A DNA stretch of 64,000 bases. Source: Rhodospirillaceae bacterium (GTDB taxonomy: Bacteria; Pseudomonadota; Alphaproteobacteria; Rhodospirillales; Rhodospirillaceae). The notes under the pieces are model-generated. The model made no database searches, was not told the DNA's origin, and worked only from the letters and a program-made list of their open reading frames with translations. Where the stretch lies: assembly GCA_965262665.1 (NCBI GenBank), contig CBDHFR010000003.1, forward strand, positions 90,811 through 154,810, read 5' to 3'. Made by a program: the position numbers and the translations under genes. Positions 4,440 to 22,787 of the stretch are shown here, in pieces. The stretch's first letter is position 1; each line of letters begins with the position of its first letter.

Positions 4440-4532
4440 TGGCTGCTTTCCTCCTTGCCTTCCTATTAGGCATTGTCAGGGCATTGTCACGCTAAGTGAT
4501 TGTAAGGGGAATTATACACCTAACTAGCCACG

Positions 4533-5624: not shown

Positions 5625-5646
5625 CCGCTGGTATAAGATCAGCAAA

Positions 5647-6540: not shown

Positions 6541-6560
6541 GTATATTACTTTCTTTACAC

Positions 6561-6590
6561 TATCCCTTCCGAAAACCGTTTCCGCCGATG
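6561..6590 (+). repeat. Orphan IS481-like left terminus (solo IR)
   Basis: TATCCCTTCCGAAAACCGTTTCCGCCG resembles the IRL at 4533. No transposase follows. Confidence 0.5.
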
Positions 6591-6664
6591 TGCATAATTA
6601 CAAGGGCCAAGATTATGGATACGGTTCAGGTAAGATAAATGGGTGTCTTGTAACCTGAATCTAC

Positions 6665-6730
6665 TGTCCTTCCCGAAAATCTTATTCGCCGATCCTGTTG
6701 ATGCAAACCGTCAGGGTGTGGATATGGCGT
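6665..6730 (+). repeat. Orphan IS481-like left end (~65 bp)
   Basis: TGTCCTTCCCGAAAATCTTATTCGCCGATCCTGTTGATGCAAACCGTCAGGG parallels 4533-4600 of the intact copy. It abuts the truncated relaxase. Confidence 0.55.
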
Positions 6731-6811
6731 CGGAGGGGGCAGGTACGCATAGCTATAGACTCGCATGACACCGCACATTACGGAATCCCAAAGCGGACTC
6801 TTTCGTTCCGG

Positions 6812-8623: not shown

Positions 8624-8862
8624 CCGCCCGGCCCGGGCCGGGCGCGGCCTCTCCCTGGCGTTCAGCCAGTGCAGGGTGCGATGGCGAGAGACCAGGAGCG
8701 TCGTTGCCGGCGAGGGAGGAAAGAACCGGGGAAGCGCGGGCTTGGCTTAGGTGGACGATTCGGTCCGTGCTGGGGGCGCCACGGATTGGGGATGCCGGTA
8801 TGTGTTGGGGCGGCTTGATATGATATGTATTGATGCCCATCTAGCTGATCCCGAAGGGTCGT

Positions 8863-9063
8863 GTGATGACGAAGAAGCAGAAAGCGTCGCGGTCGGTGAG
8901 CAAAGCCTCGAAGCAGGTCATCAAGACAACACGTTCCCGCTCGGGAACGTGTACCCTGTCCGGGGTCAGCGCGGCAAAGTCTGTGACGCCGACCTCCGAG
9001 CGGATCATTAAGGCGACCTCCGTGAAGCGTCGGACTGCCATGAAGGTGCTGGCAAATCGGTAG
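8863..9063 (+). CDS. Small basic protein, putative antitoxin partner of Doc
   Basis: 66 aa and Ser/Thr/Lys-rich. It ends 22 nt before the doc start codon. It has no Phd/YefM-like motif, so the call rests on position only. Confidence 0.3.
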   Translation: MMTKKQKASRSVSKASKQVIKTTRSRSGTCTLSGVSAAKSVTPTSERIIKATSVKRRTAMKVLANR

Positions 9064-9085
9064 GCGGCACTACCGCGTCACCTGG

Positions 9086-9442
9086 GTGGACGCGGTCCGC
9101 GGCCATGAGGAAGCGCTTCAGGATGGTGGAGCCCCTGGGATCGTAAACGAGCACGCGATTCAGTCCGCCATTGCTCGCCCTTACCACGGCTATCACCGAC
9201 GCATTCATCAAAAGGCGGCGGCACTGGTTCACGGCATCGTCTGCAACCATGGGTTTTCGGACGGCAACAAGCGGACAGCGCTCTATCTGGTCGAATTGCT
9301 GGTCCAGAGGAGCGGTTATGAATTCGTCGAAGACGACGAGATGATCGCGGACACGATTACCAGCGTCGCCCGCGGCGAAACGGGCTACGAGGACCTCGCG
9401 GAATGGTTTCGTGAACGCCTGGTTCGGCCAGGTGACCCATAG
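9086..9442 (+). CDS. doc: Doc (death-on-curing) / Fic-fold toxin
   Basis: 118 aa with a GTG start. The Fic/Doc motif is HGFSDGNKRTA, and the upstream segment GGAPGIVNEHAIQSAIARP is typical of Doc. Confidence 0.8.
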   Translation: MDAVRGHEEALQDGGAPGIVNEHAIQSAIARPYHGYHRRIHQKAAALVHGIVCNHGFSDGNKRTALYLVELLVQRSGYEFVEDDEMIADTITSVARGETGYEDLAEWFRERLVRPGDP

Positions 9443-9465
9443 TCGCCGGAAAAACGGAAGACGGT

Positions 9466-10190
9466 GTGTACCAGGACCTGTTCCACATAGGCCTTGAAGG
9501 CAGCCCCATGCATCGGCCCGTCGAGGAGCATCGGGGCCGCCAGGCCGGAGAGGCGCAAGCCGGCGGTCAACGTGGTGGTCTTCCAATGGCCATGGGGTAT
9601 GGCGGCCCGGCACCGTTCGCCTTTGCGCGACCATCCCCGCAGCCGCGCCATCTTCATCGACGCGCCGGTCTGGTCGATGAAGATCAGCCGTTCCGGAGCG
9701 AGCCCTGCCTGGCCTTCGAACCAGAGCCGGCGCCGCGCGAGCACGTCCGGGCGCCGCCGCTCCGCTGCATGGCCGGTCTTTTTTTGTGCGTCAGCCCGCG
9801 CTTGGCGAAGAAGTGCCAGACCGTCGACGGGCACACCCGAACCCCGTGCGACGCCGCCAGCTTCTCGCCAATCTCGGCCAGCGTCATAGCCTTGGTCTGC
9901 GCCACCAGAGCCAGGATAAAGGCCTCATGCGCATCCAGCTTCGAGCCCGGCGGTTGGCCCTGGCGGTCGGGCTCGATCGAGCCCGTCTCGCGCCAGCGCC
10001 GGCGCCAGTGGCTCGCCGTCGCTGGCGCGACACGAAAACGCGCCGCGGCCCCCCGTGCAGACAGACCCCCCGTGACCGCCTCGACGACCCGCCGGCGAAG
10101 ATCATTCCCGTAACAATGCCCCATGTCTGACACCAAATCGCCTCGGGATATAGAATCATGGAGTGGGACGCTTGGGAATCCCCTTCGATT
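9466..10190 (-). mobile_element. IS630-family element, 3'-truncated
   Basis: orfA starts MGHCYGNDLRRRVVEAV... at 10124. orfB reads ..KKTGHAAERRRPDV...LIFIDQTGASMKMARLRG.... The two frames meet at an A7 run (T7 on the + strand at ~9779-9785). Homology stops at ..AYVEQVLV, around 9466. Confidence 0.75.
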
Positions 10191-10196
10191 CACAAT

Positions 10197-10841
10197 TCAG
10201 TCAAACCGCTCTAGGTCCTGGCTGGTAACGTTCTTGCACGAGAAGCCCTTGGCCTTGTAATGTCTCTTGACTGTCTTCTCAGCCGCCTTCTCGACCTTCT
10301 TGCGATGCTCGGGAGTGCCGAAGCCCGCCAAGAGCTTGGCCGGGCCGGCACCCGGGTCGGGCGCCCTTGCGTCCGTGGGATTGGTGATCGCGACAGGTCT
10401 GAGCTTCTTGAGGCGGCGCTTCAAGCGCCGCAGTAGTTTGCCCTTTCTTGCGGATGTCTCAACGCCAGGAACGGCAAGGAACGAGTACTTCCCTTGCCTG
10501 ACTGAGGGATGCGAGAAGGGCATCGTGCGCTCTTCGGGTGGCACGAAGTAGGCGGTCGTGCTGGTAATGCAATACTTCCAGCCGACGATATGGACACCCT
10601 TGCGCTTGGGGTGCTTTGCGAGGCAAACGACGGTCCAGCCGGTCTGGTCATCATTTTTCGGGGCGTATTCCCCACCTTGGGGTGGAACGTAGCAATAATA
10701 TGTGCCGTCCTGCGCAGGCTCGAAATTGTATGCTTCGTGGCCCCGATTGCCTTTCCCCGCAAGGTGGCTGAAATTGCCGTCGACCGGTCCGCCGCGATAG
10801 AATTCGGACCAGCCGAACTTGACCCAAAGAACCTTCTTCAC
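10197..10841 (-). pseudogene. Restriction-like protein, C-terminus cut off by IS630
   Basis: GTG start 4 nt after the RES stop. The N-terminal domain (VLWVKFGWSEFYRGG...GHEAYNF...GTYYCYV...VHIVGWKY) resembles a domain I recall fused to HNH or DUF3883 modules. The ORF runs straight into the IS630 end and terminates there. Confidence 0.45.
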
Positions 10842-10844
10842 AGT

Positions 10845-11417
10845 TCATTTCCCGCCTGTCGCTTCATCATGCGCGTGCCAATCGTCGGATTCGTTCGGTT
10901 GGAAGTGCCGGACCTTGCGGAGCGAGTCGGGGCCCGGACGGCCGTCGATCGTTGCGGCCCAGCCAACGAGGTCCGGGCGCCGGCCAAACAGTACGAAGAC
11001 CTTGCCGTCCCGATCAGGGCCGGGCTGGAGGCCGCCCTCCACACGCCAGCCGCTGGCGCCGCTCTGCTTCAGCGCGGCCGAGGGCGCGGAGATTCCGTCC
11101 GCGTGTTTGCGAATTTGTTGCGCGATTTCGCGGCATGCCGCCCAACTCGCCCGGCCGCCCAATAGTATCTGCAGAGGTAACGAGGGCTGGTGCGACGGGG
11201 CTTCACCGATTTCGACGGCCCAAATCGCGCAGCGTATAGTGGTGAGGTCCTCCGGGTCGTGGATCTCCTCATGGCGAAGGAACTCGGCCCAAGCGCCGTC
11301 CGGGGTATCGCAGAAGTAGTGGGTCAGTTCGCCCGCGGCGTTCCACCGGCCGGCGGATTGCAACGAATCCTCCCGCAGGAAGGGGAAGCGGGGATCGGCA
11401 TGGCGGTAGGCGATCAT
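10845..11417 (-). CDS. RES-domain toxin (NAD+-degrading family)
   Basis: MIAYRHADPRFPF...AGRWNAAGELTHYFCDTPDGAWAEFLRH carries the RES-type R/E/S pattern. ATG 11417 overlaps the antitoxin stop (ATGA). The tracked ORF extends to 11489. Confidence 0.8.
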   Translation of the reverse strand: MIAYRHADPRFPFLREDSLQSAGRWNAAGELTHYFCDTPDGAWAEFLRHEEIHDPEDLTTIRCAIWAVEIGEAPSHQPSLPLQILLGGRASWAACREIAQQIRKHADGISAPSAALKQSGASGWRVEGGLQPGPDRDGKVFVLFGRRPDLVGWAATIDGRPGPDSLRKVRHFQPNESDDWHAHDEATGGK

Positions 11418-12070
11418 GTCGCCGGGGATGATCCGAGTGACCGGGCGAGTTCGCGTATCCGTTGCGGCGCACCGTCCTCCGGTGACCACGCATCTCCAAG
11501 CGCTTGGGCAGGCGTCTTGCCGTTCAAACGCTCGCGCCGGCGGTCGAACCAGCGCCTGACGCCGATATCATTGTAGGCGCCGGCAAGGTCGCCGACGACA
11601 AAGGCCAGGAAATGAAGCCGGGCGGCGATCGTGTCCGGTGTGGCGCGGCTGCCGGACAGGTAGCGTCGCGCACTGGATTGAGAGATTCTCAGAAGGCGCG
11701 TGAGCAACTCAAGTCCCAGAACGTCCTGCAGGGCTCGCCACTCGTGCGCCGGGGCCGGAGACTGATCGAGGGCTTCGGTGATCTTTTCCAGCAGGGCGGA
11801 AAGACGGGCCGGATCAGCACATGGCAGCCGGTGGAGTTCAGCAAGGAAGGTCTGGCCAATACCGGCTTTGGCCATACCCGTCTCGAGGCCGACCATGGCG
11901 GAATCGTCCAGGCAGGTGACCGGTCGGGAGAGCAGACCCATTGCGTCGGCGCGGGTCAACGCACCGATAGCTGCGGCTGCAAGCCTCGGGTCGTTGTATG
12001 GACTACGGATGGATTGGATATGGAGATTGCTCATGACCCGAAACCTATCCGCTGGCTTCAGCCGGGTCAA
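11414..12070 (-). CDS. Xre/MbcA/ParS-like antitoxin (DUF2384 C-terminal domain)
   Basis: 218 aa. The C-terminus ..RWFDRRRERLNGKTPAQALGD is typical of DUF2384. It sits immediately upstream of the RES gene and is translationally coupled to it. Confidence 0.75.
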   Translation of the reverse strand: MTRLKPADRFRVMSNLHIQSIRSPYNDPRLAAAAIGALTRADAMGLLSRPVTCLDDSAMVGLETGMAKAGIGQTFLAELHRLPCADPARLSALLEKITEALDQSPAPAHEWRALQDVLGLELLTRLLRISQSSARRYLSGSRATPDTIAARLHFLAFVVGDLAGAYNDIGVRRWFDRRRERLNGKTPAQALGDAWSPEDGAPQRIRELARSLGSSPAT

Positions 12071-12146
12071 CCTGTCCCTTCCATTTGTCTCATCCGTCTG
12101 TATTCGTGATCAAGTCGAGTGAGGTGTTTGCGCTCTAAGATAACGG

Positions 12147-12229
12147 CTGCGGCCTCTTCAATCACGAGCAATGCAGGAACTTCTTGGTTGCTGACGGCTA
12201 TGCGTCAGAATAAATCGGAAATGCTCTAG
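12147..12229 (+). repeat. Solo right-end remnant of an IS630 element
   Basis: 83 bp are nearly identical to 24193-24275 (CTGCGGCCTCTTCAATCACGAGCA.TGCAGGAACTTCTTGGTTGCTGACGGCTATGCGTCAGAATAAATCGGAAATGCT.TAG). Confidence 0.75.
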
Positions 12230-12384
12230 GGAATTCAGCGGAACCGACTTCGCCACGGAGTACTACGTCCACATGCGCGCTATGGCGCGTGCGGTTTCAT
12301 ACGGTTTCAAGTGCGTCACCGTCGTCATGCTCAAGGCCGTCATCGGCTGGCCGGCGACGGATACCCAAACATTGCTCCGAAACT

Positions 12385-13779
12385 TCATTGCGTCCGGCGG
12401 AAAGCCTTAGGGTCGGCCTTGCCTGTTTCGCGCCAGGTCATGGCCTCAAGTTTAGCAAAGGGCCGGCGCACCGATTCTGGGGCAATGCCGGCTCGGAACG
12501 CACCAAGCACGCCCACCGCCTCCCAGTAATTTTCGACGACTGTGAGCTGGCTTGGGCGCCATGGCAGCGTGGTCAGATCGTTCGCCATCAGCCCTTTGCC
12601 CTCGCGAACTGCGATTACTGGGATGCCCTGCTCTAGGGCGGCCAGGGTCGGCAACCCGATGCAGCCGTCAGGCAGAACCAAGCACGAGACGTCTTCTACC
12701 GTCAGCACGTCGTCCATTCGTATCTGTGGCGGATCGGCGACGATAGCAGGGCTTTGCTTGAGGCCCTTGAGTACGCACTGGAAGAACGACGAGGAGATCG
12801 CTTCCGCCGCCATGCGGGGATCGACCCGGCCCGGATCGCTGAACAGGATTTCGCGCGATTCCATCATCGGCGCGTGCGCCGACGGGACATTAAGGAAGTG
12901 CGATACCGCGTGGGTCAGCATCGCCTCTACGCCGCCCCACGGGTTGACCATGGTGCCATCGCTGGTGAAGTACTGATCGTGGTAACCGTCCGGCACGGCG
13001 ATCAAGGACGAGATCGCGACTGCATCGTAGTCGTCCCGGATCTCGCCCAGGAGATCGAACAAGCGTTCGATGCCGTACCCGATGCCCACCGCCCGGCCCG
13101 ACTCTGCGTAGGTTGCGGTGAGATCAAGCGGCGGATCCAACCTGTAAATTCCCGCACACTTCAAACCATAGGTCGCGCGTGTGGCCTCAACTGTATTTAG
13201 CGCGAGGTTCTCGATCATCTCGTCCGGCTGGGCGTCGATAACGACAAGGACCCGGTTGGCGCGGACCGGCTTCAGCCCCGCTGTCCCCATCAATAATCTG
13301 CAAATCACGCTGCCTTCGACGTAAAACGCGTTCACCGGAATCTCGTTGATGTCGCTGGCGTTGACGACATTGGGATGGGTGATCAGATGATCACAGCCGG
13401 AAGCCAGCAACTGCGCCGCCGGGGTCGCGTCGCCAGCGTGCCCACCGATCTCGGCACCGATGCCTGTCGGCACCAGAAAGACGACGTTAAAACGGTCGAC
13501 CTTTTCCGCGCCGCGCCGACGGAGATCGAAGATCGAGCGGCCGCTTTCGCGCTCGCCCGCCCGCGCGCCGACCAGGCAGCCGACCTCGCAGTGATAGTGA
13601 TCGTCATCGATCGAAGTGACGGCGAGGCGAAGGGGGATTTCTCCGTCGACGAAGCGGAAGGAGAGCGCCTTCTCGATGTGTTCGATCAGTCCGCGGTTTC
13701 CGGGCGCGAGCGGAACCGAAACTGGTTTCTCATGCAATTGCAATGTCGGCCACTCCCGCGGTTCGGGCGAATTCGTCAA
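12385..13779 (-). CDS. DUF3326-family protein
   Basis: 464 aa. The motif VPTGIGAEIGGHAGDATPAA is the signature I associate with DUF3326. The tracked TTG start overlaps the nspC 3' end by 50 nt. Alternative TTG starts at 13743 and 13737 would leave only a short overlap. Confidence 0.55.
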   Translation of the reverse strand: MTNSPEPREWPTLQLHEKPVSVPLAPGNRGLIEHIEKALSFRFVDGEIPLRLAVTSIDDDHYHCEVGCLVGARAGERESGRSIFDLRRRGAEKVDRFNVVFLVPTGIGAEIGGHAGDATPAAQLLASGCDHLITHPNVVNASDINEIPVNAFYVEGSVICRLLMGTAGLKPVRANRVLVVIDAQPDEMIENLALNTVEATRATYGLKCAGIYRLDPPLDLTATYAESGRAVGIGYGIERLFDLLGEIRDDYDAVAISSLIAVPDGYHDQYFTSDGTMVNPWGGVEAMLTHAVSHFLNVPSAHAPMMESREILFSDPGRVDPRMAAEAISSSFFQCVLKGLKQSPAIVADPPQIRMDDVLTVEDVSCLVLPDGCIGLPTLAALEQGIPVIAVREGKGLMANDLTTLPWRPSQLTVVENYWEAVGVLGAFRAGIAPESVRRPFAKLEAMTWRETGKADPKAFRRTQ

Positions 13780-14947
13780 AGGTATCTTCCTTTATCATCT
13801 CCAGCGTGCCGTCGGCGTGGCGGGTATAAATCGTGGGCAGGCCGACGCCATTGAAGCGGTGCGCCTTCGACAGGGTGTAGGCCCCCATGTTGAGGAACGT
13901 GATCCTGGAGCCGACGGCGAGCGGTGCATCGAAGGCATACTCGCCGAAGACGTCTCCAGCCAGGCACGTGCACCCGGCCAGCACATAGGGGTGCACGCCG
14001 CCGTCGATGTGGCCCAGGACGTCCGGTTCGAACTGGAACTCGAAGACTTCCGCCATGTGGTTTACGGTGGTGTCTAGGACGGCGACTTGAACGCCATCGC
14101 TTTCGAAGAGATCGTAAACCGTCGCCTCGATGCTTCCCGCGCGTCGGACCAGGGCCGCACCGGGCTCGATGAAGACGTCGAGGCCGAAGGTGTCGCGGAA
14201 GATCTCTACAGCCTGGAAGAAGTCCGATGTGTCGTCGGCCAAATTGAAAAGGTAGCCGCCCCCCATGTTGATCCAGTCCAAGCTTTCGAGAAGGTTCGGG
14301 ATCACGTCCTGGATGCGGCGCGCGGTGGCCAGCAGGCTGGCGAAATCGGTCTCCTCGCAATTATTGTGGAAGTGGAGACCGTTAATCCCCCGCAAGCGGG
14401 CTGGTTCCGCCTCTGCCACCTCGGCCAACTTGGAGATCGGCACGCCGAGTTTGGAATTCTGTCGGCACGGGTCGTAGCGCGGGTCGCGGATGAACGAAAG
14501 CTCGGGATTAACCCGGATCCCGGCCTGTGTCACCGTCGGCACCTGTTTGCGAAGCAGTTTCCACTGAGACAGCGAATTGAACGTCAGGTAATCGAGACGG
14601 CCGCCAATCTCGCTGAGCGTTTCTTCCTTGAGCAAGGGACTGACGAGGTGGAGCGGCGTCTCGCTGCCGCACACGCGATCGATCAGTCGCAGTTCGAACA
14701 GCGAACTGCAGCCGAACCCGTCGACATGCCCGGCGATCTTTTCGAGGACCCGCGACAGCGCGCACGCCTTGGGCGAATACAATAGCTTGCAGGCAGCCTT
14801 GTCGGCGATCTTGCGGAGCGCCCTGAGGTCGCGGTTGAGAATATTTTCATCCGTCACGTATGCCGGCGTTTTTATTGTGTTGGCCAAGTGAACGCCTCCC
14901 CGAGACGTCCGTTTTCTCCGCTCCCGCGCAGCCGGAAGTTCAAACAT
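13730..14947 (-). CDS. nspC: Carboxynorspermidine/carboxyspermidine decarboxylase
   Basis: 405 aa. The N-terminal IKTPAYVTDENILNRDL and the alanine-racemase-fold decarboxylase layout (..GGGYLF.., ..AGCTCLAGDVFGEY..) fit the family. Confidence 0.8.
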   Translation of the reverse strand: MFELPAARERRKRTSRGGVHLANTIKTPAYVTDENILNRDLRALRKIADKAACKLLYSPKACALSRVLEKIAGHVDGFGCSSLFELRLIDRVCGSETPLHLVSPLLKEETLSEIGGRLDYLTFNSLSQWKLLRKQVPTVTQAGIRVNPELSFIRDPRYDPCRQNSKLGVPISKLAEVAEAEPARLRGINGLHFHNNCEETDFASLLATARRIQDVIPNLLESLDWINMGGGYLFNLADDTSDFFQAVEIFRDTFGLDVFIEPGAALVRRAGSIEATVYDLFESDGVQVAVLDTTVNHMAEVFEFQFEPDVLGHIDGGVHPYVLAGCTCLAGDVFGEYAFDAPLAVGSRITFLNMGAYTLSKAHRFNGVGLPTIYTRHADGTLEMIKEDTFDEFARTAGVADIAIA

Positions 14948-15016
14948 TTCATGTGTTTTAACATTGTACTTGCTGTCCCCGACAACGAAAGATCAAAATA
15001 CATTTCAGCCGCCCAG

Positions 15017-16177
15017 TCATTCACCGATGACGTGCGGGATGAAGTTGGCATTTTCCGTGGTCACTAGGTCCCGGCCCTCGCGGATGCCGAGCCCGGCGGC
15101 CCCGCCGGCGACCATCCAACAGCCGATCAAGGGGTAGCGGCCGTCGAAGTTGGGTAATGGGTGAAACGCCTGCACGACGAACCCCTCCCCGCCGTAGGGG
15201 CCGTCTTTCCGTACCTCGACATTACCTTCGTGGATGATTTCGACGTTGGCGCCGCGCCGGGACAACAGGGGTTTTCGGACGAAAGTGTCCGACAGTTCCG
15301 CCGCGCGCGCCTCGCCCTCGAAATAGGCCGGCAGCAGATTCGGATGTCCCTCGAACGTCTCCCACAGCAGTGCGAGCAGGCCTTTGTTCGACAGCACGGC
15401 CTTCCACGGCGGCTCGATGAAACGGACACCGCTCTTGGGCATGTAGCGGCCGAATTCCTCCTCCATCAACCACTCCCAGGGATAGAGCTTGAACAGGGTC
15501 GCGATCACTCGGTCGTCGAGGTCGGTGAAGCGGCCTTCGGCGTCGACGCCGATCTCTTCCATCGACAAGAACGTGGTTTCGACGCCGGCTTCCTCGGCGA
15601 CGTCTTCCAGGTATTCGACGGTGCTGCGGTCGTCCTCAATGTCCTTGAGACACGCCATGTGCAGCGTACCATCGAGTGCCAATTCCGAAAACGCCTCAAG
15701 TAGAAACTCGTGCAGCAGGTTGAACTGATCGCAGCCTTCGGGAACCAGGCCGAGGTCGATCGCCTGCTCCAGCCATTCCCACTGAAATAGCGACGCGTCG
15801 TACAGCGTCGTCGGGGTGTCGGCATTGTATTCCAGGAGCTTCGCCGGCCCGCTGCCTTCGTAGGCGAAGTCAAACCGCCCAAAGAGGTTTTTCTCTTGGT
15901 TCCGCCAACTCTCGGCAACGTAATTCCAATAGGCCTCCGGTATGCGAAGGCGCCGGAACACCGTCTCGTCGGCCACGGCGCGGTTCAAGACCTCGAAACA
16001 GAGGCTCTCGATTTCCTCCGCGGGGCCCTCCAGGTCGTCCTCGATCTGGCGCAAGGTGAAGCGGTAGTAGGCGGTTTCATCCCAGTAGGGAACGCCGCCG
16101 GCGTCATCGTACGGGTAGCCGTGCGCCAACGCCGATTGCTTCAGGTTGGGCCGTTGGGCAACCGGGACGCGTCGCAT
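15017..16177 (-). CDS. Glutathionylspermidine-synthase-like ATP-grasp ligase (YjfC-like)
   Basis: 386 aa. It is colinear by eye with the GspS pre-ATP-grasp family (YWDETAYYRFT..., RFDFAY...KLLEYNADTPT, KPLLSRRGANV). Confidence 0.8.
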   Translation of the reverse strand: MRRVPVAQRPNLKQSALAHGYPYDDAGGVPYWDETAYYRFTLRQIEDDLEGPAEEIESLCFEVLNRAVADETVFRRLRIPEAYWNYVAESWRNQEKNLFGRFDFAYEGSGPAKLLEYNADTPTTLYDASLFQWEWLEQAIDLGLVPEGCDQFNLLHEFLLEAFSELALDGTLHMACLKDIEDDRSTVEYLEDVAEEAGVETTFLSMEEIGVDAEGRFTDLDDRVIATLFKLYPWEWLMEEEFGRYMPKSGVRFIEPPWKAVLSNKGLLALLWETFEGHPNLLPAYFEGEARAAELSDTFVRKPLLSRRGANVEIIHEGNVEVRKDGPYGGEGFVVQAFHPLPNFDGRYPLIGCWMVAGGAAGLGIREGRDLVTTENANFIPHVIGE

Positions 16178-16201
16178 CGGCCGAACGCGGGTTTACGGGG
16201 T

Positions 16202-16939
16202 TCAGGCGCTGCGCTTGGCTTTGAGCCGGGCCAGCACGTCGCCGCCCTTCGCGCCGCCATCGACGATTCCGGCGGCTTTGAGCTTGTCGTCGAGACTGAC
16301 CTCTTCGGTCGAATGGGCGAGTTCGTTGGCGGCCTCGAACTTCGCAGCGCGTTCCGCCTGTTTCGTTTTCAGCCGTTCCAAACTGTCGACCGCGCTGCGC
16401 ATGCTCGAATCGGCGCCAGAGTGGCGTGCCGCGACCGCGGCCTGTGCGCGTTGCACCGTTTCCGTCGCCTTGACCGTGTCGACCTGCTGCTTGAGCCGTT
16501 TCAGGTTGGCCTCGGTTTGAGCGACGGCGCGGCGAAGTTGCGCCTCGCTGTCGGCGAAGGATTTGGCGAGGCCTTCTTCGCCAGCGAATTCAGCTTCCAT
16601 CCCGGCGATCTTGCCAGCGATCTCCGTCGCCAGGGTTTCGTCGCCCTTGTCGAGCGCCTGCATTGCGTAACCATCATATTCCTTGATCGAGGCCTGTAGG
16701 GATTCGATTTTCTTGTCGGCGAGCTTGCGCTTGGCGATGATGCCGGTCAGAGCTTCCTTCGAGCGGATGAGTTCGTTGTCGGCGTCGCGGATTTCCTGAT
16801 CGAGGATGCGTAGCGCCTGATTGTCGGCGATCGCCTCGCCGGCCTCATTGACGCCACCGCGGATGGCCGTCGCGACCTTTGCCCAAATATTCAACTGCCT
16901 TACTCCTTCGTCAGATTCGTTGCGCGCGTTGCGGCGCAA
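16202..16939 (-). CDS. PspA/IM30-family protein (YjfJ-like)
   Basis: A coiled-coil protein containing ..ALRILDQEIRDADNEL... The likely true start is TTG at 16894 (MNIWAKVATAIRGG), which is preceded by GAAGGAG. Confidence 0.85.
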   Translation of the reverse strand: MRRNARNESDEGVRQLNIWAKVATAIRGGVNEAGEAIADNQALRILDQEIRDADNELIRSKEALTGIIAKRKLADKKIESLQASIKEYDGYAMQALDKGDETLATEIAGKIAGMEAEFAGEEGLAKSFADSEAQLRRAVAQTEANLKRLKQQVDTVKATETVQRAQAAVAARHSGADSSMRSAVDSLERLKTKQAERAAKFEAANELAHSTEEVSLDDKLKAAGIVDGGAKGGDVLARLKAKRSA

Positions 16940-16943
16940 TTAT

Positions 16944-17576
16944 TCAAGCGACCTTCTTCAGGTCCGTCTGGTAGGCCTCGGCGACCTGCATCGCGTTGTC
17001 GGCCAGGGTTTCGATTTCGAATATGACCGATTCCAATATCGAACCCGCGCTGAGCGCACCGAACAGTTCGTAGTAATCCTTTCCGTCGGGCCCTGTGCCG
17101 ATGCCAAAGGTCGACAGCGCCAAGAGCTTGTGGGTTTTTAGGATCGTGGCGTTGAATTCGGCGGGGTCCGCCACGTCATCCACGGGCCAAAGTAGAGTAT
17201 CAACCAGGATCTGACCGCCGCTGACGCTCATGATGAGGGGCAGATCGCCAAATTCCGTCATGGTGATGAGAATCCCCGGATCGGCGCCTTCCACAAGTTC
17301 GACGATAAAATTGCCGGACGACGCGGGCTCCGATTGAGCCAACGCCGCACATAGGGTCTCTATTGTCCAGTTTTCGTCTTGGCTCATTGTTCTCTTCCTA
17401 ACGGTTTTCGGAATGAAGGGAATAATTCCCTCCCTGAGCGCTGCCTGACAGTCGCTGAGGGCCTTGGCGAATTCGGGTGGAATCCAAACCTCGCGCTTGA
17501 CGAAGCCCCGCTCGCGCAAGCGCGCACGGTACCGGGACTGATAGTAAGATGACTTTTTAGATGGCATCAGGTTCAA
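16944..17576 (-). CDS. YjfI-like (DUF2170) protein with a ~60-aa basic N-terminal extension
   Basis: The DUF2170 part starts at MSQDENWTIETL (ATG 17387). The in-frame upstream 63 aa read SSYYQSRYRARLRERGFVKREVWIPPEFAKAL. Confidence 0.7.
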   Translation of the reverse strand: MNLMPSKKSSYYQSRYRARLRERGFVKREVWIPPEFAKALSDCQAALREGIIPFIPKTVRKRTMSQDENWTIETLCAALAQSEPASSGNFIVELVEGADPGILITMTEFGDLPLIMSVSGGQILVDTLLWPVDDVADPAEFNATILKTHKLLALSTFGIGTGPDGKDYYELFGALSAGSILESVIFEIETLADNAMQVAEAYQTDLKKVA

Positions 17577-17597
17577 ACTTTACCTCTTTACACGTCA

Positions 17598-17615
17598 TAT
17601 ATTACATGTAATATA
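17598..17615. promoter_or_regulatory. Perfect 18-bp palindrome in the divergent promoter region (candidate operator)
   Basis: TATATTACATGTAATATA lies 22 bp upstream of the yjfI-like start codon. It sits between the divergent yjfI-pspA... and K+ channel-yjfK... operons. Confidence 0.5.
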
Positions 17616-17741
17616 GAATCAAGTGTTTTCTTGGCAAAACGGGAACCGAACCACCGGGAACTGTGCGCCAACATGGGCCTGTGACTAGATGCACGCGCGG
17701 GTTGGCAACGACAGGCGGGCCGGTTGATTTAGTTGACTTGA

Positions 17742-18812
17742 ATGCGCATCATTCTGTCGAGAGTCGCGAAACGCATCTACTCCAGGATCGCCGGGCTGAG
17801 TTGGGATGCGGTATTCGTCCTCGCGGCCTGCCATTTCGCCATATCTTGGGTCGTGATCGCCCTTACTGGCGGCGAGGAAATAGCTGAGGGCGGCATATTT
17901 TGGTACTTCTACGCTACCACCGCCACCACCGTTGGTTACGGCGACTACTCGCCGACAACTTGGGGGGGGCGACTGGTCACAGTCTTGTGGGTAATGCCCG
18001 GTGGCATCGCGCTGTTTACGACGATCATCGCCAAAGCGGTGCAACAGGGATCCGACCGATGGAGGAAAAGCGTGCGCGGAAAATCAAATTACGATAATCT
18101 GGCGGATCACATCGTTATTCTCGGCTGGCATGGCTTTCGGACCCAGCGGATGGTCGATCAACTCCGCGGCGATATCGGCGAAAAGGACCGGGAAATCGTC
18201 TTGTGCACGGCCCAGACCCTCGATAACCCGATGCCCGATCAGGTGCTCTTCGTGTGCGGCGACGCGCTCAACACGCCGGACGTGCTGACCCGCGCCGGTG
18301 TGGCTACGGCCGGGTACATTATTGCCCTCGGCCATGACGACAGCGAGACCCTCGCCGCCGCCTTAGGAGCCGCTGCGATCAACCACGACGCCCATATCGT
18401 CGCCTATTTCGACCTCGAGAGTTTCGCCGACCTCCTCAAGGCCCATTGTCCGCACGCGGAATGCAACGTTTCGCTGTCGATCGAGCTCATGGTGCGCTCG
18501 GCCCAGGACCCCGGTTCGAGCCGCGTCCAGCGCCAGTTGCTGTCGACCCTGGTAGACCCGACCCAATTCAGCCTCAAGGTGCCGAAGGGCGCCGGCGCGG
18601 TGAGTTACGGCGCCCTGTTCGCGACGTTGAAGGAAAACCACGATGCCACCTTGATCGGCGTCGCCGAAAGCGCCTTGGGCGACGACCTCGTCCTAAACGC
18701 GCCGTCGGGTCACCCGGTCGATCCTGGAGCGATTGTCTATTTCCTGGCGGCGCGGCGGATCGAGCCAGGCGAGATCGATTGGCTGGCGCTAAAGGCAGGA
18801 TGGCCGACATGA
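17742..18812 (+). CDS. Potassium channel with C-terminal RCK/TrkA-N domain
   Basis: The selectivity filter is TTVGYGD, flanked by two TM helices. HIVILGWHGFRTQRMV starts the Rossmann-like RCK domain. Confidence 0.85.
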   Translation: MRIILSRVAKRIYSRIAGLSWDAVFVLAACHFAISWVVIALTGGEEIAEGGIFWYFYATTATTVGYGDYSPTTWGGRLVTVLWVMPGGIALFTTIIAKAVQQGSDRWRKSVRGKSNYDNLADHIVILGWHGFRTQRMVDQLRGDIGEKDREIVLCTAQTLDNPMPDQVLFVCGDALNTPDVLTRAGVATAGYIIALGHDDSETLAAALGAAAINHDAHIVAYFDLESFADLLKAHCPHAECNVSLSIELMVRSAQDPGSSRVQRQLLSTLVDPTQFSLKVPKGAGAVSYGALFATLKENHDATLIGVAESALGDDLVLNAPSGHPVDPGAIVYFLAARRIEPGEIDWLALKAGWPT

Positions 18813-19501
18813 TCGGCGACAGTATGAAATCGCTCTTTAAGAGCGGTGTGCGCGACATTAAGAACAGGTTTTCCAAAGGCGGCGAGGAGGATGAGTTGCC
18901 TACGCCGCTGGGCCTACGCATCGGCGCCGCGGTCGATATCGACACTCTGCCGTTGCGCATGCACGCCGACGACCTGTATGTTGAGTTGCCGGAGGAGACG
19001 ATCCTGATCGTCGCCCAGGGACTTATCGATCTCGGCGACGACGCGTATGTTCACCGCTATTACGGCGAGGACGACACGATGATCCAGGTCCTCACGGTCA
19101 ACGGCGTCGAGGACCAGCATATCGAGGAAGTCACCCTTTTTGTGCCGCACGAAAGTATCTATCCTAGTAGCGGTGGGGAATGGGCGCAATGGATCGCAAA
19201 GGGCGGCAAGATTGGCGGGCCCACCTACCGATTCGACGACGGCACGGAGTATGAACGAATTTGGTTCGACACGACGCCGGGCCACGCCGATCCGGTGGTG
19301 TTCACCGAGGAAGTTTACGAAGCTGCTGAAACCGAAGGGGCGGACGTCGTTGTCCAGCAGGTCATGCTGTTCGGTCGCAACCTGGAAGAGGGAAAAAAGA
19401 ATGAGTACCTCTTGATCACGGTCGAAGCCTACGAAGGGGAAAAGACGGTGGAACTCATGGTCGGCGTGGACCTCGACCTCCCCACGGTGAAAGTCATTTG
19501 A
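18809..19501 (+). CDS. YjfK-like (DUF2491) protein
   Basis: The ATG overlaps the channel stop (ATGA). It is colinear with my memory of E. coli YjfK (..PLGLRIGAAVDIDTL.., ..HRYYGEDD.., ..LFVPHE.., ..VGVDLDLP..). Confidence 0.8.
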   Translation: MIGDSMKSLFKSGVRDIKNRFSKGGEEDELPTPLGLRIGAAVDIDTLPLRMHADDLYVELPEETILIVAQGLIDLGDDAYVHRYYGEDDTMIQVLTVNGVEDQHIEEVTLFVPHESIYPSSGGEWAQWIAKGGKIGGPTYRFDDGTEYERIWFDTTPGHADPVVFTEEVYEAAETEGADVVVQQVMLFGRNLEEGKKNEYLLITVEAYEGEKTVELMVGVDLDLPTVKVI

Positions 19502-19574
19502 CGGGAAGATCGGAACCGGTGGCCGAATGACCGTCCCCACGAACACCGGCCGAGCGTCCGCGAAGGAGTTTTGA

Positions 19575-19988
19575 ATGATTGAACAACTCAACAGAAATTT
19601 GACGGATTTGCCGGAATTCCTTGCGTTCTTCGTTGTCGCCGTCCTCATGATGATCGTATTCGTCGCGGTCTATACCAACGTCACCCGGCACAGCGAGATC
19701 AAGCTGATCAAGGAGAACTCGGTCGCCGCCGCGGTCGCATTTTCAGGCAGCATGATCGGTTTTGCCCTGCCGCTGGCGAGCGCCATGATCAGTTCACGCA
19801 CGATCCTCGAAGTGATCATCTGGGGCATGGTCGCGCTGTTAGTGCAGATTGTCGTCTATCTCCTCGTGCGGCTGCCGATGCCGCGGGTATCCGAGCGTAT
19901 CGAGAACAACGAGATCGCCGCTGGCATCTGGCTTGGCGCGTCGTCGCTCGCCGCCGGCATCCTGAATGCCGCCAGCATGACCCCGTAA
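19575..19988 (+). CDS. DUF350 (YjfL-like) integral membrane protein
   Basis: 137 aa with four predicted hydrophobic helices. Its position after yjfK matches the E. coli yjf operon. Confidence 0.7.
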   Translation: MIEQLNRNLTDLPEFLAFFVVAVLMMIVFVAVYTNVTRHSEIKLIKENSVAAAVAFSGSMIGFALPLASAMISSRTILEVIIWGMVALLVQIVVYLLVRLPMPRVSERIENNEIAAGIWLGASSLAAGILNAASMTP

Positions 19989-19995
19989 GTAAGGA

Positions 19996-20529
19996 GTGCG
20001 TCCGTTGAAACGCTCAATCACATTCAAAATGGTCATGCTCGGGGCGAGCGCACTGACCCTCAGTTCCTGCGGCGAATCAAAAGAAGAAGTCCTCACTTAC
20101 CCATCGGTGGAGGCGTGTATCGCCGCCGGAGTACAGGACGTTTCGACGTGCCGCGCCGAATTCGACAAGGCGAAGGCGTTGCAGGACGAGGTCGCCCCGC
20201 GTTACCAGACATCCTCGACGTGCTACGCCGACTTCGGCAACGACCAGTGTTATCGACGGCAAACCTCCAGCGGTTCGTTCTGGTTGCCGTTCATGGGCGG
20301 ATATATGTTGGCGCCGCGCGGCTCCTCGGCGGCTATCTACTCGCAGCCGCTCTATCGCCTCAGGAGCGACCCCCGGCAGTTCTACACCAGCGGCGGCGTC
20401 GGGGTCGGCAACGTGTCCCGCGACGGCCGCGCACAGGTTACCAAGTCCCAGGTCAGCCAGCCCCGCGCGCGCGCGCGCGCGGTCGCGAGGGGTGGTTTCG
20501 GCGCCCGGTCGACGAGTTCGGCCAGTTAG
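19996..20529 (+). CDS. DUF1190 (YjfM-like) lipoprotein
   Basis: It has a lipobox (LTLSSCG) and a conserved Cys-rich segment (..CIAAG..VSTCRAEF...TSSTCYADFGNDQCY). The start is uncertain: GTG 19996 or TTG 20005. Confidence 0.7.
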   Translation: MRPLKRSITFKMVMLGASALTLSSCGESKEEVLTYPSVEACIAAGVQDVSTCRAEFDKAKALQDEVAPRYQTSSTCYADFGNDQCYRRQTSSGSFWLPFMGGYMLAPRGSSAAIYSQPLYRLRSDPRQFYTSGGVGVGNVSRDGRAQVTKSQVSQPRARARAVARGGFGARSTSSAS

Positions 20530-21089
20530 GTGTCCCCGGTCCGGGGCTGGTACTTATGATCCAGACAGGCGACGGCGATGCCGGCGATCAGGCCGAACAG
20601 GTGGCCCTCGAAGGAAACGTAACTTCTAATCGGCAGGATGCCCCACAGGAGGCCGCCGTAGAAGATCATCGTCACGCCCGCAACGGCGATGGAGACGAGG
20701 CCGCGCTCGAAGTATGCGCGGGCCAGCAAGGCGCCGAAATACCCTAACACCAGACCGCTGGCGCCGACGTGAGGCACGCTACGTGCGAATAGCCAGACGA
20801 GGACCCCCGACAATAATATGATCCCGACGGTGCTCGCCCAAAACCGCGTTTTGCCGCCGATCAGAGTGAGCGCGCCCAGGACCAGCAGGGGCACCGTGTT
20901 CGAAGCGGCGTGCCACAGTCCGGCGTGAAGGAAGGGCGCAAGCGGGATCCCAATCAGCCCGCTCACCCGCCGCGGCAGGATGCCCCACGACGTCAAGCCG
21001 TGGCCGAGGAAGAAGTTCACGATCTCCGCGACCCAGATCGCAGCGACGAGGACGATAACCGGAAAAAAGAATTTCTTGATGAACTCCAT
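20526..21089 (-). CDS. Rhomboid-family intramembrane serine protease
   Basis: 187 aa with six hydrophobic helices. It has the GASGLVLGYFG (GxSG) motif and a downstream His in a TM helix. Confidence 0.8.
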   Translation of the reverse strand: MEFIKKFFFPVIVLVAAIWVAEIVNFFLGHGLTSWGILPRRVSGLIGIPLAPFLHAGLWHAASNTVPLLVLGALTLIGGKTRFWASTVGIILLSGVLVWLFARSVPHVGASGLVLGYFGALLARAYFERGLVSIAVAGVTMIFYGGLLWGILPIRSYVSFEGHLFGLIAGIAVACLDHKYQPRTGDT

Positions 21090-21309
21090 CGAACCGTCGC
21101 GCTATTAAGAATTCGACGCTCCCGATTTAGAACCCAAACAAGAAGCCCGCGTCAAGCGCAACTTGACCGTGGTCTGCCCCTAAGTAGATGAACCACCACT
21201 TAATTTATACACTGGCACGGATTAATACCAATGGCCATGAGTGTTGACTCACTTTTGGGCTTTTCAAGTCGTCACGGTTCTGAGTCAAGGTTGTCAAAGG
21301 AGATTTCCG

Positions 21310-21636
21310 ATGCCAGCCAAAGTGACCCTGCGCTCTGATTTTGATGCCCTTCGGCTTCGCCAGTTTGCCAAACGAAGTTCCGATACATGCCAGACCTGCC
21401 GTTTGTTGGCCCTGGCGGCGGTGTATGACGGGATGAGCCGTGGGGAAGCTGCGAAAGTCGGCGGGATGGATCGCCAGACTTTGCGTGATTGGGTTCATCG
21501 GTTCAACGATCTGGGTCCCTATGGACTGGTTAATAGTCGAGGCCCAAAGCGCAAGCGCCGCCTCAGCGAAGCGCAGTTGCAGGCGTTGGCTGAGATTGTG
21601 GAGACCGGTCCCGACCCTGAGGTTGATGGTGTTGTA
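21310..21636 (+). pseudogene. IS630 transposase, N-terminal fragment
   Basis: MPAKVTLRSDFDALRLRQFAKRS...LALAAVYDGMSRGEAAKVGGMDRQTLRDWVHRFN...GPDPEVDGVV parallels the IS630 copy at 43301. It breaks after GVV. Confidence 0.7.
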
Positions 21637-21749
21637 CCTCATGCGCCGTATCCCCCAGCCCCGGTCATGCTTTTTTTAGGGAATTATAACTTAATATTGA
21701 CTTTCTGAGCCCCGCCTGTTATACATAAATCATTGAAAGGCAGGGACAA

Positions 21750-22688
21750 ATGGCACATCCAGCCCCCGGAAAATCAGACCGCAAAGGCATCACGATGATA
21801 GAGCTTTGCGACATGTTCCCCGATGAAGACACAGCCCGTGCATGGTTTGAATCTCGTCTCTGGGCCGATGGCCGTTACTGCCCACACTGTGGCAGTATAA
21901 AGACACACGAAGCCAGTCACAACAACATGCCGTACCGCTGCACCGATTGCCGGGCCTACTTCTCGGTCAAGACCGGCACCGCCATGCACGATTCCAGGAT
22001 TCCCCTGCGGAAATGGGTCTTTGCGATCTACTTGCACCTGACCAGTCTCAAGGGCGTGTCGAGCATGAAACTCCATAGGGATATCGGGGTATCCCAGAAA
22101 ACCGCTTGGTACATGCTCCAGCGTATCCGCCAGGCATGGAGCGCTGGCGCTCTTGAGCAGTTTGTAGGCCCGGTGGAGGTCGATGAAACCTATCTCGGTG
22201 GCAAAGAGACCAACAAGCATGCCAGCAAGAAGCTGAGGGCCGGTCGCGGCACGGTTGGTAAGGCCGCCATTGTGGGCGCAAAGGATCGCAAGACGAATAA
22301 GGTCAAAGCCAAGGTGGTTGGCACGACAGACGCTAAAACTCTGCAAGCCTTTGTCCTGGCTGTCGCGCTGGGTGGGGCCACGGTCTACACCGACGATGCG
22401 GGCGCATACAAAGGCATGAAGGGCGTCGAACACCAGAGCGTCAAACATAGCGTAGGCGAGTACGTCTCAGGGATGGCGAGCACCCAAGGTATTGAGTCCT
22501 TTTGGGCCATGCTGAAACGGGCGCACAAAGGCACGTATCACAAGATGAGCGCCAAGCACTTACAGCGGTACGTCAACGAGTTCTCAGGCCGCCACAACGT
22601 GCGCGGACTGGATACCGCCGACCAAATGAACCGCGTTGCCCACGGCTTGGCCGGGAAGCGGTTGAGCTACAAGGACCTGACCGCCTGA
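21750..22688 (+). CDS. IS1595-family transposase
   Basis: 312 aa. It has an N-terminal Zn ribbon (CPHCGS...CTDCRAYF) and a DDE_Tnp_IS1595-type core (VEVDETYLGGKE...TVYTDDAGAY). Confidence 0.85.
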   Translation: MAHPAPGKSDRKGITMIELCDMFPDEDTARAWFESRLWADGRYCPHCGSIKTHEASHNNMPYRCTDCRAYFSVKTGTAMHDSRIPLRKWVFAIYLHLTSLKGVSSMKLHRDIGVSQKTAWYMLQRIRQAWSAGALEQFVGPVEVDETYLGGKETNKHASKKLRAGRGTVGKAAIVGAKDRKTNKVKAKVVGTTDAKTLQAFVLAVALGGATVYTDDAGAYKGMKGVEHQSVKHSVGEYVSGMASTQGIESFWAMLKRAHKGTYHKMSAKHLQRYVNEFSGRHNVRGLDTADQMNRVAHGLAGKRLSYKDLTA

Positions 22689-22787
22689 ACGAGAGCCGGT
22701 CAACCGGCCACCCCTCTCCAGATCAGCTTGATTTTACCGTGGCGAATGTATAGATTTCCTGGGTGCTTACAGGCAGGAGAATCCAAG

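Follow-up and report, generated by a model that had tools for sequence, protein, structure and literature searches.

A near-obligate pairing of DUF3326 with a decarboxylase, and a possible route of amine supply to a YjfC-type ligase, in a PspA and K+ channel locus of a Rhodospirillaceae bacterium

A nine-gene locus of a Rhodospirillaceae bacterium (GenBank assembly GCA_965262665.1, contig CBDHFR010000003.1) raises the question of which enzymes supply the amine to a polyamine ligase whose gene is followed by those of a decarboxylase and a DUF3326 protein. The locus occupies positions 12385-20529 of the analysed stretch of 64,000 nucleotides (nt), hereafter the window, and Pfam analysis of its open reading frames (ORFs) resolved it into two divergent operons, at the coordinates first reported. 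The minus-strand operon encodes, in this order, a DUF2170 protein, a PspA-family protein, the ligase, the nspC-like decarboxylase and the DUF3326 protein, and the plus-strand operon encodes a K+ channel followed by DUF2491, DUF350 and DUF1190 proteins. A preliminary description, made from the letters without database searches, proposed that the locus makes or attaches a spermidine/norspermidine conjugate, an interpretation that is partly supported by the present analysis. The pairing of DUF3326 with a decarboxylase was found to be near-obligate, and DUF3326 is most likely the step that the preliminary description had sought in a dehydrogenase. Our best reading, to which we give even odds, is that DUF3326 and the decarboxylase together constitute a polyamine module that works without the dehydrogenase and supplies the YjfC-type ligase. 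The three enzyme genes are as follows (aa, amino acids).

12385..13743 (ORF to 13779), minus strand: long-form DUF3326 protein, 452 aa (Pfam PF11805; start from homologues and public gene calls)
13730..14947, minus strand: nspC-like decarboxylase dependent on pyridoxal 5'-phosphate (PLP), of the carboxynorspermidine decarboxylase (CANSDC) family, maximal ORF 405 aa (Pfam Orn_Arg_deC_N / Orn_DAP_Arg_deC)
15017..16177, minus strand: YjfC/YgiC-type ATP-grasp acid-amine ligase of the peptide-polyamine ligase family, 386 aa (PF03738 GSP_synth, 467.6 bits)

The overlap of the decarboxylase and DUF3326 genes that had been described is real and measures 14 nt, the decarboxylase stop codon TGA lying at 13730-13732 and the DUF3326 start codon TTG, placed by homologue alignment and public gene calls, at 13743. 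An alternative start of the decarboxylase gene at 14887 gives a protein of 385 aa, and public gene calls of both 385 and 405 aa exist.

The related loci (designated L and a number) were obtained by a scan of one genome per species with a DUF3326 alignment, in which the best matches to the long-form protein were retained (80 loci), and they were compared with the window by tblastn with the window's proteins. A decarboxylase gene adjoins DUF3326 in 78 of these 80 species-level loci, which span at least eight phyla; the two unpaired loci are a contig ending 302 nt upstream and a partial match. The partner is an nspC-like PLP gene in 52 loci and a small pyruvoyl-type gene of the AdoMet_dc (S-adenosylmethionine decarboxylase, AdoMetDC) family in 26, never both, and the two genes of the pair usually share a strand, with a gap of mostly 60 nt or less or an overlap. 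DUF3326, which the preliminary description had treated as an add-on of unclear role, is thus not an unrelated neighbour of the decarboxylase. The decarboxylase partner is also kept in 52 loci without a match to the YjfC ligase (53 match-less loci minus the partial L065), mostly in Dehalococcoidia, Bdellovibrionales and Thermodesulfobacteriota. Ordinary polyamine-biosynthesis genes were not seen next to the pair in the loci inspected, where its recurrent neighbours are membrane-stress or defence genes. Among uncultured marine bacteria the pair is widespread, with examples in Rhodospirillales, SAR202 Dehalococcoidia, Marinimicrobia, Dadabacteria/Thermodesulfobacteriota, Bdellovibrionales, Planctomycetota and Nitrospinaceae, and the module and this distribution are the new, largely undescribed part of the locus.

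The two types of partner bear on what the pair may do. DUF3326 clades largely follow partner type, and in sister alphaproteobacterial loci (L020, L022, L024, L025, L027, L028, L030, L031, L033, L035, L037, L042 and L063) an AdoMet_dc-family enzyme of about 125-170 aa replaces the nspC-like gene between the YjfC ligase and DUF3326 (e.g., L028 9463-9984). Most of these loci are reduced to DUF350-DUF1190-ligase-decarboxylase-DUF3326. The membrane modules of L006, a locus of the nspC type, and of L022, one of the AdoMetDC type, each share 87-90% identity with that of the window, and such like membrane modules next to unlike pairs suggest that the pair was replaced as a unit in situ. The exchange of a PLP enzyme for a pyruvoyl enzyme while DUF3326 stays constant points to a carboxylated amine as the shared intermediate; by our own chemical reasoning, the substrates of AdoMetDC and carboxy(nor)spermidine are both 2-amino-4-(onium)butanoates. 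The AdoMetDC-like proteins retain the FSC cysteine and have serine at the position of the pyruvoyl precursor, and they are very divergent (TIGR03330, 22 bits vs. a cutoff of 75.65). A phmmer search of PDB sequences gave no significant match to solved AdoMetDCs, so that the family assignment is that of the Pfam hidden Markov model (HMM) alone. Two proteins, P0122 (562 aa) and P0254 (458 aa), are single-chain fusions of AdoMet_dc and DUF3326, one with the long form and the other with the short form.

The best NCBIfam match of the window's decarboxylase is nspC (TIGR01047) at 270.9 bits, which is below the equivalog cutoff of 409.05. The protein aligns over its full length to the solved structures of carboxyspermidine decarboxylases (CASDCs) 9EAF, 3MT1 and 3N29, and it is closer to these carboxy-polyamine decarboxylases (254 bits) than to ornithine or lysine decarboxylases (ODC/LDC, about 32 bits). 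For comparison of the active sites, 42 DUF3326-linked sequences were aligned with four canonical CASDCs, with the numbering of ClCASDC and the residue roles reported for these enzymes (PMC11866407). The linked enzymes form a clade apart from the four canonical ones, with a mean identity of 32% between linked and canonical sequences and of 48% among the 42 linked ones. The PLP-binding Lys43, His170, Glu237, Gly239, Cys306, Asp310 and Tyr335 are invariant in the window protein and in all 42. Two positions differ from the canonical enzymes throughout: Asp276, on a helix thought to select substrate length (PMC11866407) and kept in all four canonical enzymes, is Glu in 42/42, and Glu240 of the EPGE motif, likewise kept in the four, is Ala, Ser or Thr in 42/42 (Ala in the window). 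The retention of the catalytic residues in an altered pocket suggests that the chemistry is unchanged while the substrate differs, though it too would be an amino acid carrying a distal cation. By these comparisons the decarboxylase is a member of the CANSDC family, as had been proposed, although not a canonical NspC but one of a distinct, DUF3326-linked subfamily.

The earlier remark that no carboxynorspermidine dehydrogenase is encoded in the window holds. The query was the carboxyspermidine dehydrogenase (CASDH) from beside the canonical nspC of Sinorhizobium; it gave no tblastn match at E ≤ 0.01 in the 64-kb window, and no homologue was found with it in any of the 80 related loci within flanks of ±10 kb. 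The only canonical nspC locus inspected, that of S. medicae (L082), has the dehydrogenase adjacent. The CASDH gene at that locus (L082 4096-5400, Sinorhizobium medicae pMl3) appears frameshifted, its halves lying in different frames with no coding sequence listed. A score below the cutoff, a separate clade and the want of a dehydrogenase beside any of these genes mean that spermidine or norspermidine, the products named in the preliminary description, are not the safest guess.

PF11805 matches the DUF3326 protein at residues 87-425 (299.8 bits; positions 2-336 of the 337 in the model), and in the long form this domain is preceded by a conserved N-terminal alpha/beta domain of about 85 aa. Homologues number 6686 at 90% clustering and 1179 representatives at 50%; none was found in the plasmid collection searched. 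More than 100 positions are invariant among 42 DUF3326 sequences with identities down to 60%, including the stretch VPTGIGAExGGHAGDAxP, located after the first strand of a beta-alpha-beta unit. An AlphaFold2 model was confident (predicted local distance difference test 82, predicted template-modelling score 0.86). However, a Foldseek search of the model against the PDB returned nothing at E<1e-3, the top matches being lumazine synthase and generic flavodoxin-like or Rossmann-like domains with template-modelling (TM) scores of 0.2-0.5, and no deoxyhypusine-synthase or homospermidine-synthase fold was found in it. A profile search of PDB sequences gave a sole match of 13 bits, by chance, and Pfam at E ≤ 10 returned DUF3326 alone. 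As the fold is uninformative, the reaction proposed for DUF3326 is argued from context alone, in which the partnership with decarboxylases of two unrelated types confines the chemistry to a reaction that forms or uses up a carboxylated amine.

The ligase is the part of the locus with the closest characterised relatives. It matches E. coli YjfC (7UK6) and YgiC (7UK8) at 403 bits each over the full length, compared with only 100-125 bits for GspS and trypanothione synthetase, and GSP_synth (PF03738) covers residues 14-384 in a pre-ATP-grasp/ATP-grasp architecture without an amidase domain. On this evidence, the window ligase is assigned to the YjfC/YgiC-type peptide-polyamine ligase family. E. 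coli YjfC and YgiC are described as peptide-spermidine ligases in work of Pederick 2023, as cited by two later papers (PMC12568646, PMC11762307). The core of the preliminary description, i.e., that a decarboxylase encoded behind a polyamine-ligase-like ATP-grasp enzyme indicates a polyamine conjugate, is backed by this activity and by the 403-bit match. The C-termini of the cluster proteins were compared as possible acceptors of the ligase; several tails are conserved (DUF350 ...NAASMT, DUF2491 ...KVI, DUF1190 RGGFG), and none was singled out.

Two known pathways resemble the enzyme pair. In the aspartate-semialdehyde-dependent CANSDH/CASDH plus CANSDC/CASDC (NspC) pathway, where CANSDH is the carboxynorspermidine dehydrogenase, the decarboxylase has the same family, fold and catalytic residues as that of the window, and the logic is shared, in that the genes for a condensing enzyme and for the decarboxylase acting after it are neighbours. 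The difference is that DUF3326, which is not homologous to the dehydrogenase, occupies its place in the window. The second is the pavABC cluster of Paraburkholderia caledonica, the source of the only functional data on a DUF3326 protein and described in a preprint (10.64898/2026.06.12.731819), in which PavA is a fusion of a Rieske domain and an nspC-like decarboxylase, PavB is a DUF3326 protein and PavC is a JmjC-like hydroxylase. According to the same preprint, deletion of pavA or pavB abolishes N-(5-aminopentyl)pentane-1,5-diamine, while cadaverine is present in all mutants; the product, pavettamine, is a hydroxylated toxin, and pavABC is reported only in Burkholderia sensu lato (10.64898/2026.06.12.731819). 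PavAB and the window thus both combine an nspC-like decarboxylase domain with DUF3326, a likeness drawn by description and not by sequence. The Rieske domain of PavA and the JmjC-like PavC are features of the Pav cluster and not of the window, where Pfam detects only the two decarboxylase domains in the decarboxylase, without a Rieske fusion, and no JmjC-like PavC neighbour. A further set of gene clusters bears comparison: Li et al. (Biochem J, 2019) reportedly found AdoMetDC in "polyamine-independent" clusters with DUF350 and GspS-like ligase genes and are said to have suggested that spermidine is not the product. Those clusters are said to centre on a fusion of a major facilitator superfamily (MFS) protein with a SpdSyn-like domain, and the window differs in that the partner is DUF3326 and the decarboxylase is PLP-dependent.

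Taken with the membrane proteins, these observations lead us to propose the following mechanism. The locus, conserved in marine Rhodospirillales-like alphaproteobacteria, would serve in envelope stress and ion homeostasis and would consist of two modules. The membrane module would comprise a BacA/YjfI-type chaperone, YjfJ, a K+ channel gated by an RCK domain, DUF2491, DUF350 and a DUF1190 lipoprotein, and the extra N-terminal domain of the chaperone would probably repress the divergent promoters via paired TTACATGTAA sites. In the enzyme module, DUF3326 may take the place of carboxy(nor)spermidine dehydrogenase and form a C-N bond between an amine and an amino-acid-type building block, yielding an N-alkylated alpha-amino acid ("carboxy-polyamine"). 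The decarboxylase would convert this compound to a polyamine, with which the YjfC-type ligase would amidate the C-terminal carboxylate of a peptide or protein, and the cationic conjugate may then act at the inner membrane with PspA and the channel. The DUF3326 reaction, the identity of the polyamine, the ligase acceptor and the physiological trigger are those that we infer.

Several points weigh against this mechanism. To our knowledge, no DUF3326 protein has a known biochemical activity. The model shows no recognisable NAD(P) or S-adenosylmethionine (SAM) fold, and Foldseek ranks a flavodoxin-like/lumazine-synthase subdomain first (E=1.5e-3). Short-form DUF3326 proteins, found in cyanobacteria and plants, have different neighbours (PMC4284462). 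The decarboxylase-DUF3326 pair is missing from E. coli and from the operons as published, and the evidence on PavAB comes from a preprint on a distant system with a Rieske fusion and a JmjC partner, whose heterologous production in E. coli failed (10.64898/2026.06.12.731819). A dehydrogenase may be encoded elsewhere, the search having covered 64 kb here and ±10 kb in the relatives. Both fusion proteins are singleton clusters that could be artefacts of assembly or gene calling, which limits their weight.

The membrane module and the neighbouring features are as follows.

16202..16894 (ORF to 16939), minus strand: PspA/IM30-family protein, YjfJ type, 230 aa in the public call (PF04012, 165.4 bits)
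16944..17576, minus strand: DUF2170 protein, YjfI / BacA-like, CesT/Tir-type chaperone fold (PF09938, residues 69-203)
17588..17611, no strand: operator-like element in the divergent promoter region (palindrome and degenerate copy)
17742..18812, plus strand: K+ channel with two transmembrane segments and a cytoplasmic RCK (TrkA_N) gating domain, 356 aa (PF07885 Ion_trans_2, PF02254)
18809..19501, plus strand: DUF2491 (YjfK-like) protein, 230 aa (PF10679, 177 bits)
19575..19988, plus strand: DUF350 (YjfL-like) integral membrane protein, 137 aa (PF03994, 130.9 bits)
19996..20529, plus strand: DUF1190 (YjfM/YgiB-like) lipoprotein with an LSSC lipobox (PF06693, 115.8 bits)
20526..21089, minus strand: rhomboid-family intramembrane protease (PF01694, 77.8 bits)

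Every family assigned to the nine ORFs of the locus exceeds its Pfam gathering score, among them all six yjf families (DUF2170, PspA_IM30, DUF2491, DUF350, DUF1190 and the GSP_synth ATP-grasp). E. coli K-12 yjfI/J/K/L/M/C are annotated in RefSeq as DUF2170, PspA family, DUF2491, DUF350, DUF1190 and "peptide--spermidine ligase YjfC", and the gene content, the six families and the two divergent operons of the preliminary description are confirmed by these comparisons. The described coupling of the channel and DUF2491 genes is real as well, stop and start codons sharing ATGA at 18809-18812. The PspA-family protein scores 19.8 bits against the PspA equivalog TIGR02977 (cutoff 242.95), showing that it is of the YjfJ type rather than PspA itself. 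In the channel, both the pore and the TrkA_N/RCK domain were matched, and the selectivity filter TVGYGD was read in the translation; the C-terminal RGGFG motif of the DUF1190 protein is conserved. The rhomboid gene is convergent with the DUF1190 gene, which it overlaps by 4 nt, and is found at the same position in L002, L005, L009, L011, L012, L014 and L016. It is a syntenic neighbour whose membership in the system is uncertain. No RNA family of Rfam matched positions 11500-22000 at E ≤ 0.1.

The DUF2170 protein matches NCBIfam BacA of P. aeruginosa over its full length (241.7 bits); its assignment to the CesT/Tir fold follows Ravi et al. 2024 (PMC11237479). Its first 60 or so residues, which have no counterpart in E. 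coli YjfI (133 aa), form an N-terminal extension with a weak UrfF repressor-like match at residues 10-48. Upstream of this gene, by about 25-45 nt, lies the palindrome TTACATGTAA (17602-17611), with a degenerate copy, TTACACGTCA, at 17588-17597, both within the divergent intergenic region 17577-17741. In 17 related loci, two copies of TTACATGTAA stand 13-14 bp apart at the corresponding place upstream of the DUF2170 gene (L002, L004-L009, L011-L014, L016, L018-L020 and L022 being those named), suggesting that the paired element is probably an operator and that the N-terminal extension of the BacA-like protein is its likely binder. The element overlaps sigma-70-like hexamers on both strands, the frequency of which is no better than in shuffled sequences. 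No sigma-54 promoter of the TGGCAC-N5-TTGC type, as reported for P. aeruginosa bacA, is visible in the divergent intergenic region.

The preliminary description had allowed that the linkage of nspC, DUF3326 and the channel might be unique to this genome, having arisen by island shuffling. The order DUF2170-PspA-ligase-nspC-like-DUF3326 is shared with 15 species, known from alphaproteobacterial/Rhodospirillales marine metagenome-assembled genomes (MAGs), among the 80 loci, with protein identities to the window of 54-90%, and 12 of the 15 also carry the divergent K+ channel-DUF2491-DUF350-DUF1190 operon, most with the rhomboid gene too. Because the linkage is conserved across these 12-15 species, the arrangement is not unique to this genome. 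The locus is mosaic. The window's ligase, decarboxylase and DUF3326 are closest to those of L002 (86-89% identity; 85-89% with the rhomboid included), whereas the block from PspA to DUF1190 is closest to L006, L013 and L022 (85-90%; DUF1190 72-78%, with 72-74% in L006 and L013), and the enzymes of L006 and L013 are only 65-74% identical to those of the window. This pattern implies a putative recombination breakpoint between the PspA and ligase genes and suggests that the three enzymes move as a cassette. The left flank holds an integrase (928-2112), a truncated TrwC relaxase (6812-8623), IS630-like insertion sequence (IS) fragments at about 9.5-10.2 kb and a RES toxin (10845-11489) with a probable antitoxin (11414-12070); the right flank holds IS630/IS1595-type transposase genes at 21.2-22.7 kb. 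The flanks (928-12070 and 21200-22700) are mobile-element debris, although the locus itself is syntenic.

Part of the locus corresponds to systems that have been described before. E. coli yjfIJKLMC (with its paralogue tolC-ygiBC) has the same six families and keeps the DUF1190-ligase dyad, but it is a single co-directional operon in the order I-J-K-L-M-C, whereas the window has two divergent operons with the ligase gene after that of PspA and not that of DUF1190. The E. coli operon also lacks the K+ channel, the decarboxylase and DUF3326, its YjfI lacks the N-terminal extension, and E. coli makes spermidine elsewhere, via SpeD and SpeE. The P. aeruginosa bacA-F cluster (PMC10948618) is a relative in which BacA has the same N-terminal extension as the window's DUF2170 protein. 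By comparative genomics, Ravi et al. 2024 (PMC11237479) described a "third group" of CesT/Tir(DUF2170)-PspA operons, in which a GspS-like ATP-grasp is joined by a ligand-sensing K+ channel with an intracellular sensor domain and by DUF350, DUF1190 and DUF2491, and they suggested that polyamines are monitored or used by PspA systems. The composition of this third group is that of the window's membrane module together with the ligase, which makes the statements that the function of the yjf cluster is unknown and that the cluster is "expanded" with a K+ channel outdated. The CANSDC-like decarboxylase and DUF3326 are present in the window and are not mentioned in the passages of PMC11237479 that a term search retrieved. 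Thus, the K+-channel operon and the polyamine ligase are already described, and the pair is new.

The pair also occurs in other genomic settings. In 13-15 loci it forms one apparent operon, on the same strand, with Septu-like anti-phage genes for PtuA and PtuB (L023, L038, L039, L040, L041, L043, L046, L047, L053, L055, L064, L073 and L077; L021 and L026 with PtuA only). PtuA-like is an AAA_15/21 ATPase of about 415 aa and PtuB-like an HNH protein of about 253 aa, matched by PADLOC at 157 and 186 bits. The pair lies directly downstream of PtuAB, which are about 0.4-3.2 kb upstream of DUF3326 (locus position about 10001), except in L039, where PtuAB follow the pair about 0.4 kb downstream of DUF3326 (which ends at 3730). 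These loci come from seven unrelated lineages and include both decarboxylase types: Thermodesulfobacteriota/Dadabacteria, Bdellovibrionales, Marinimicrobia, Rhodothermales, Nitrospinaceae, Dehalococcoidales and one alphaproteobacterium. In L021 (6682-7449), L023 and L026, all of which carry the AdoMetDC-DUF3326 pair, a below-cutoff homologue of MfnB, the (5-formylfuran-3-yl)methyl phosphate synthase, is encoded directly upstream of the PtuA-like gene. In SAR202-type Dehalococcoidia (L032, L044, L050, L057, L061, L062 and L072; e.g., L057 10001-18674), the pair is accompanied by a 483-aa protein with no Pfam or NCBIfam match, a distant homologue of the window's RCK K+ channel (24-29% identity) and a SecA-like gene product of about 1086 aa. 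In five further loci (L034, L036, L051, L059 and L066; e.g., L051 8296-9507), a protein of about 403 aa with transmembrane segments and a long coiled-coil/amphipathic helical region, without family assignment, is encoded immediately upstream of the decarboxylase. The idea that it is a divergent ligase was rejected on account of its transmembrane and coiled-coil character and the lack of an ATP-grasp signal.

Other explanations of the pair were weighed against this background. The decarboxylase may simply supply a diamine from ornithine, lysine, diaminobutyrate or arginine, on which DUF3326 acts before the ligase uses the product, e.g., by condensing two diamines into a symmetrical triamine in the manner of homospermidine synthase. 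AdoMetDC homologues have repeatedly become pyruvoyl ornithine or arginine decarboxylases, in polyamine clusters beside homospermidine synthases (PMC10407285); the AdoMetDC-like proteins here are very divergent (22 vs. 75.65 bits, no phmmer match to solved AdoMetDCs), the CANSDC family is sister to ODC, LDC and diaminopimelate decarboxylase (DAPDC), and the PavAB-dependent product is itself a symmetrical C5-N-C5 triamine. However, P. caledonica contains cadaverine without pavA and still requires pavA for the triamine, suggesting that the decarboxylase does more than supply a diamine. With the model of DUF3326 lacking a deoxyhypusine-synthase or homospermidine-synthase fold, and with the decarboxylase scoring 254 bits against carboxy-polyamine decarboxylases and about 32 against ODC/LDC, diamine supply is judged unlikely, if well short of negligible. 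We give a slim chance to a second alternative, in which a normal carboxy(nor)spermidine decarboxylase is fed by a dehydrogenase encoded elsewhere and DUF3326 is a hydrolase or amidase for conjugate recycling, a regulator or a carrier. The full-length match to CANSDC structures with all catalytic residues kept would suit such an enzyme, as would the fact that the inspection covered only a fraction of each genome. A turnover enzyme beside a ligase has its precedent in E. coli GspS, in which a ligase is coupled with an amidase. Set against this are the score below the nspC equivalog cutoff, the separate clade with two pocket substitutions fixed in 42/42 and the count of dehydrogenases, 0/80 loci compared with the single canonical nspC locus inspected (S. 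medicae L082), where it is present. Since DUF3326 keeps its decarboxylase in the 52 ligase-less loci, it cannot be an accessory specific to the conjugate.

A reading in terms of defence or signalling, i.e., that the pair makes a small amine signal or effector for stress and anti-phage defence and is plugged into different effector sets, draws on the PtuA-like and PtuB-like operons, which recur in 13-15 loci and seven lineages with both decarboxylase types, and on neighbours that, in the loci inspected, are membrane-stress or defence genes and not other recognised polyamine genes. The window region, rich in mobile elements and with a toxin-antitoxin pair, fits as well. However, unrelated cargo often adjoins defence genes, no PADLOC model matches DUF3326, the decarboxylases or the ligase, there is no experimental link, and in the alphaproteobacteria the locus keeps its synteny from species to species and does not resemble an island, so that we regard this reading as improbable. 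Chance juxtaposition by island shuffling in this genome only, which the flanking IS fragments, RES toxin, truncated relaxase and integrase might suggest, is refuted by the same gene order in 15 species-level genomes at 54-90% identity and by the decarboxylase-DUF3326 adjacency in 78/80 loci across phyla.

Returning to the proposed DUF3326-decarboxylase module, a broader and more tentative reading, which we consider possible but rather doubtful, is that long-form DUF3326 with a dedicated PLP or pyruvoyl decarboxylase constitutes a third polyamine route besides the dehydrogenase and aminopropyltransferase routes. Its product would then be a stress or defence metabolite rather than a housekeeping polycation, and the effectors to which it is handed would vary, being PspA, a K+ channel and a peptide-polyamine ligase in the window, the Septu nucleases PtuAB in some loci and a SecA-like protein together with a K+ channel in others. 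The DUF3326 family extends from marine bacteria to cyanobacteria and plants and has no solved structural relative. If the proposal is correct, abundant but uncultured ocean lineages would have in DUF3326 an enzyme that stands in for carboxyspermidine dehydrogenase without being homologous to it, and the repeated associations of PspA with polyamine genes would gain a concrete metabolite. The Septu-operon setting could link polyamine-type metabolites to phage defence. A ligase hard-wired to its own amine-making cassette may also make it possible to find the natural amine of YjfC/YgiC-type ligases.

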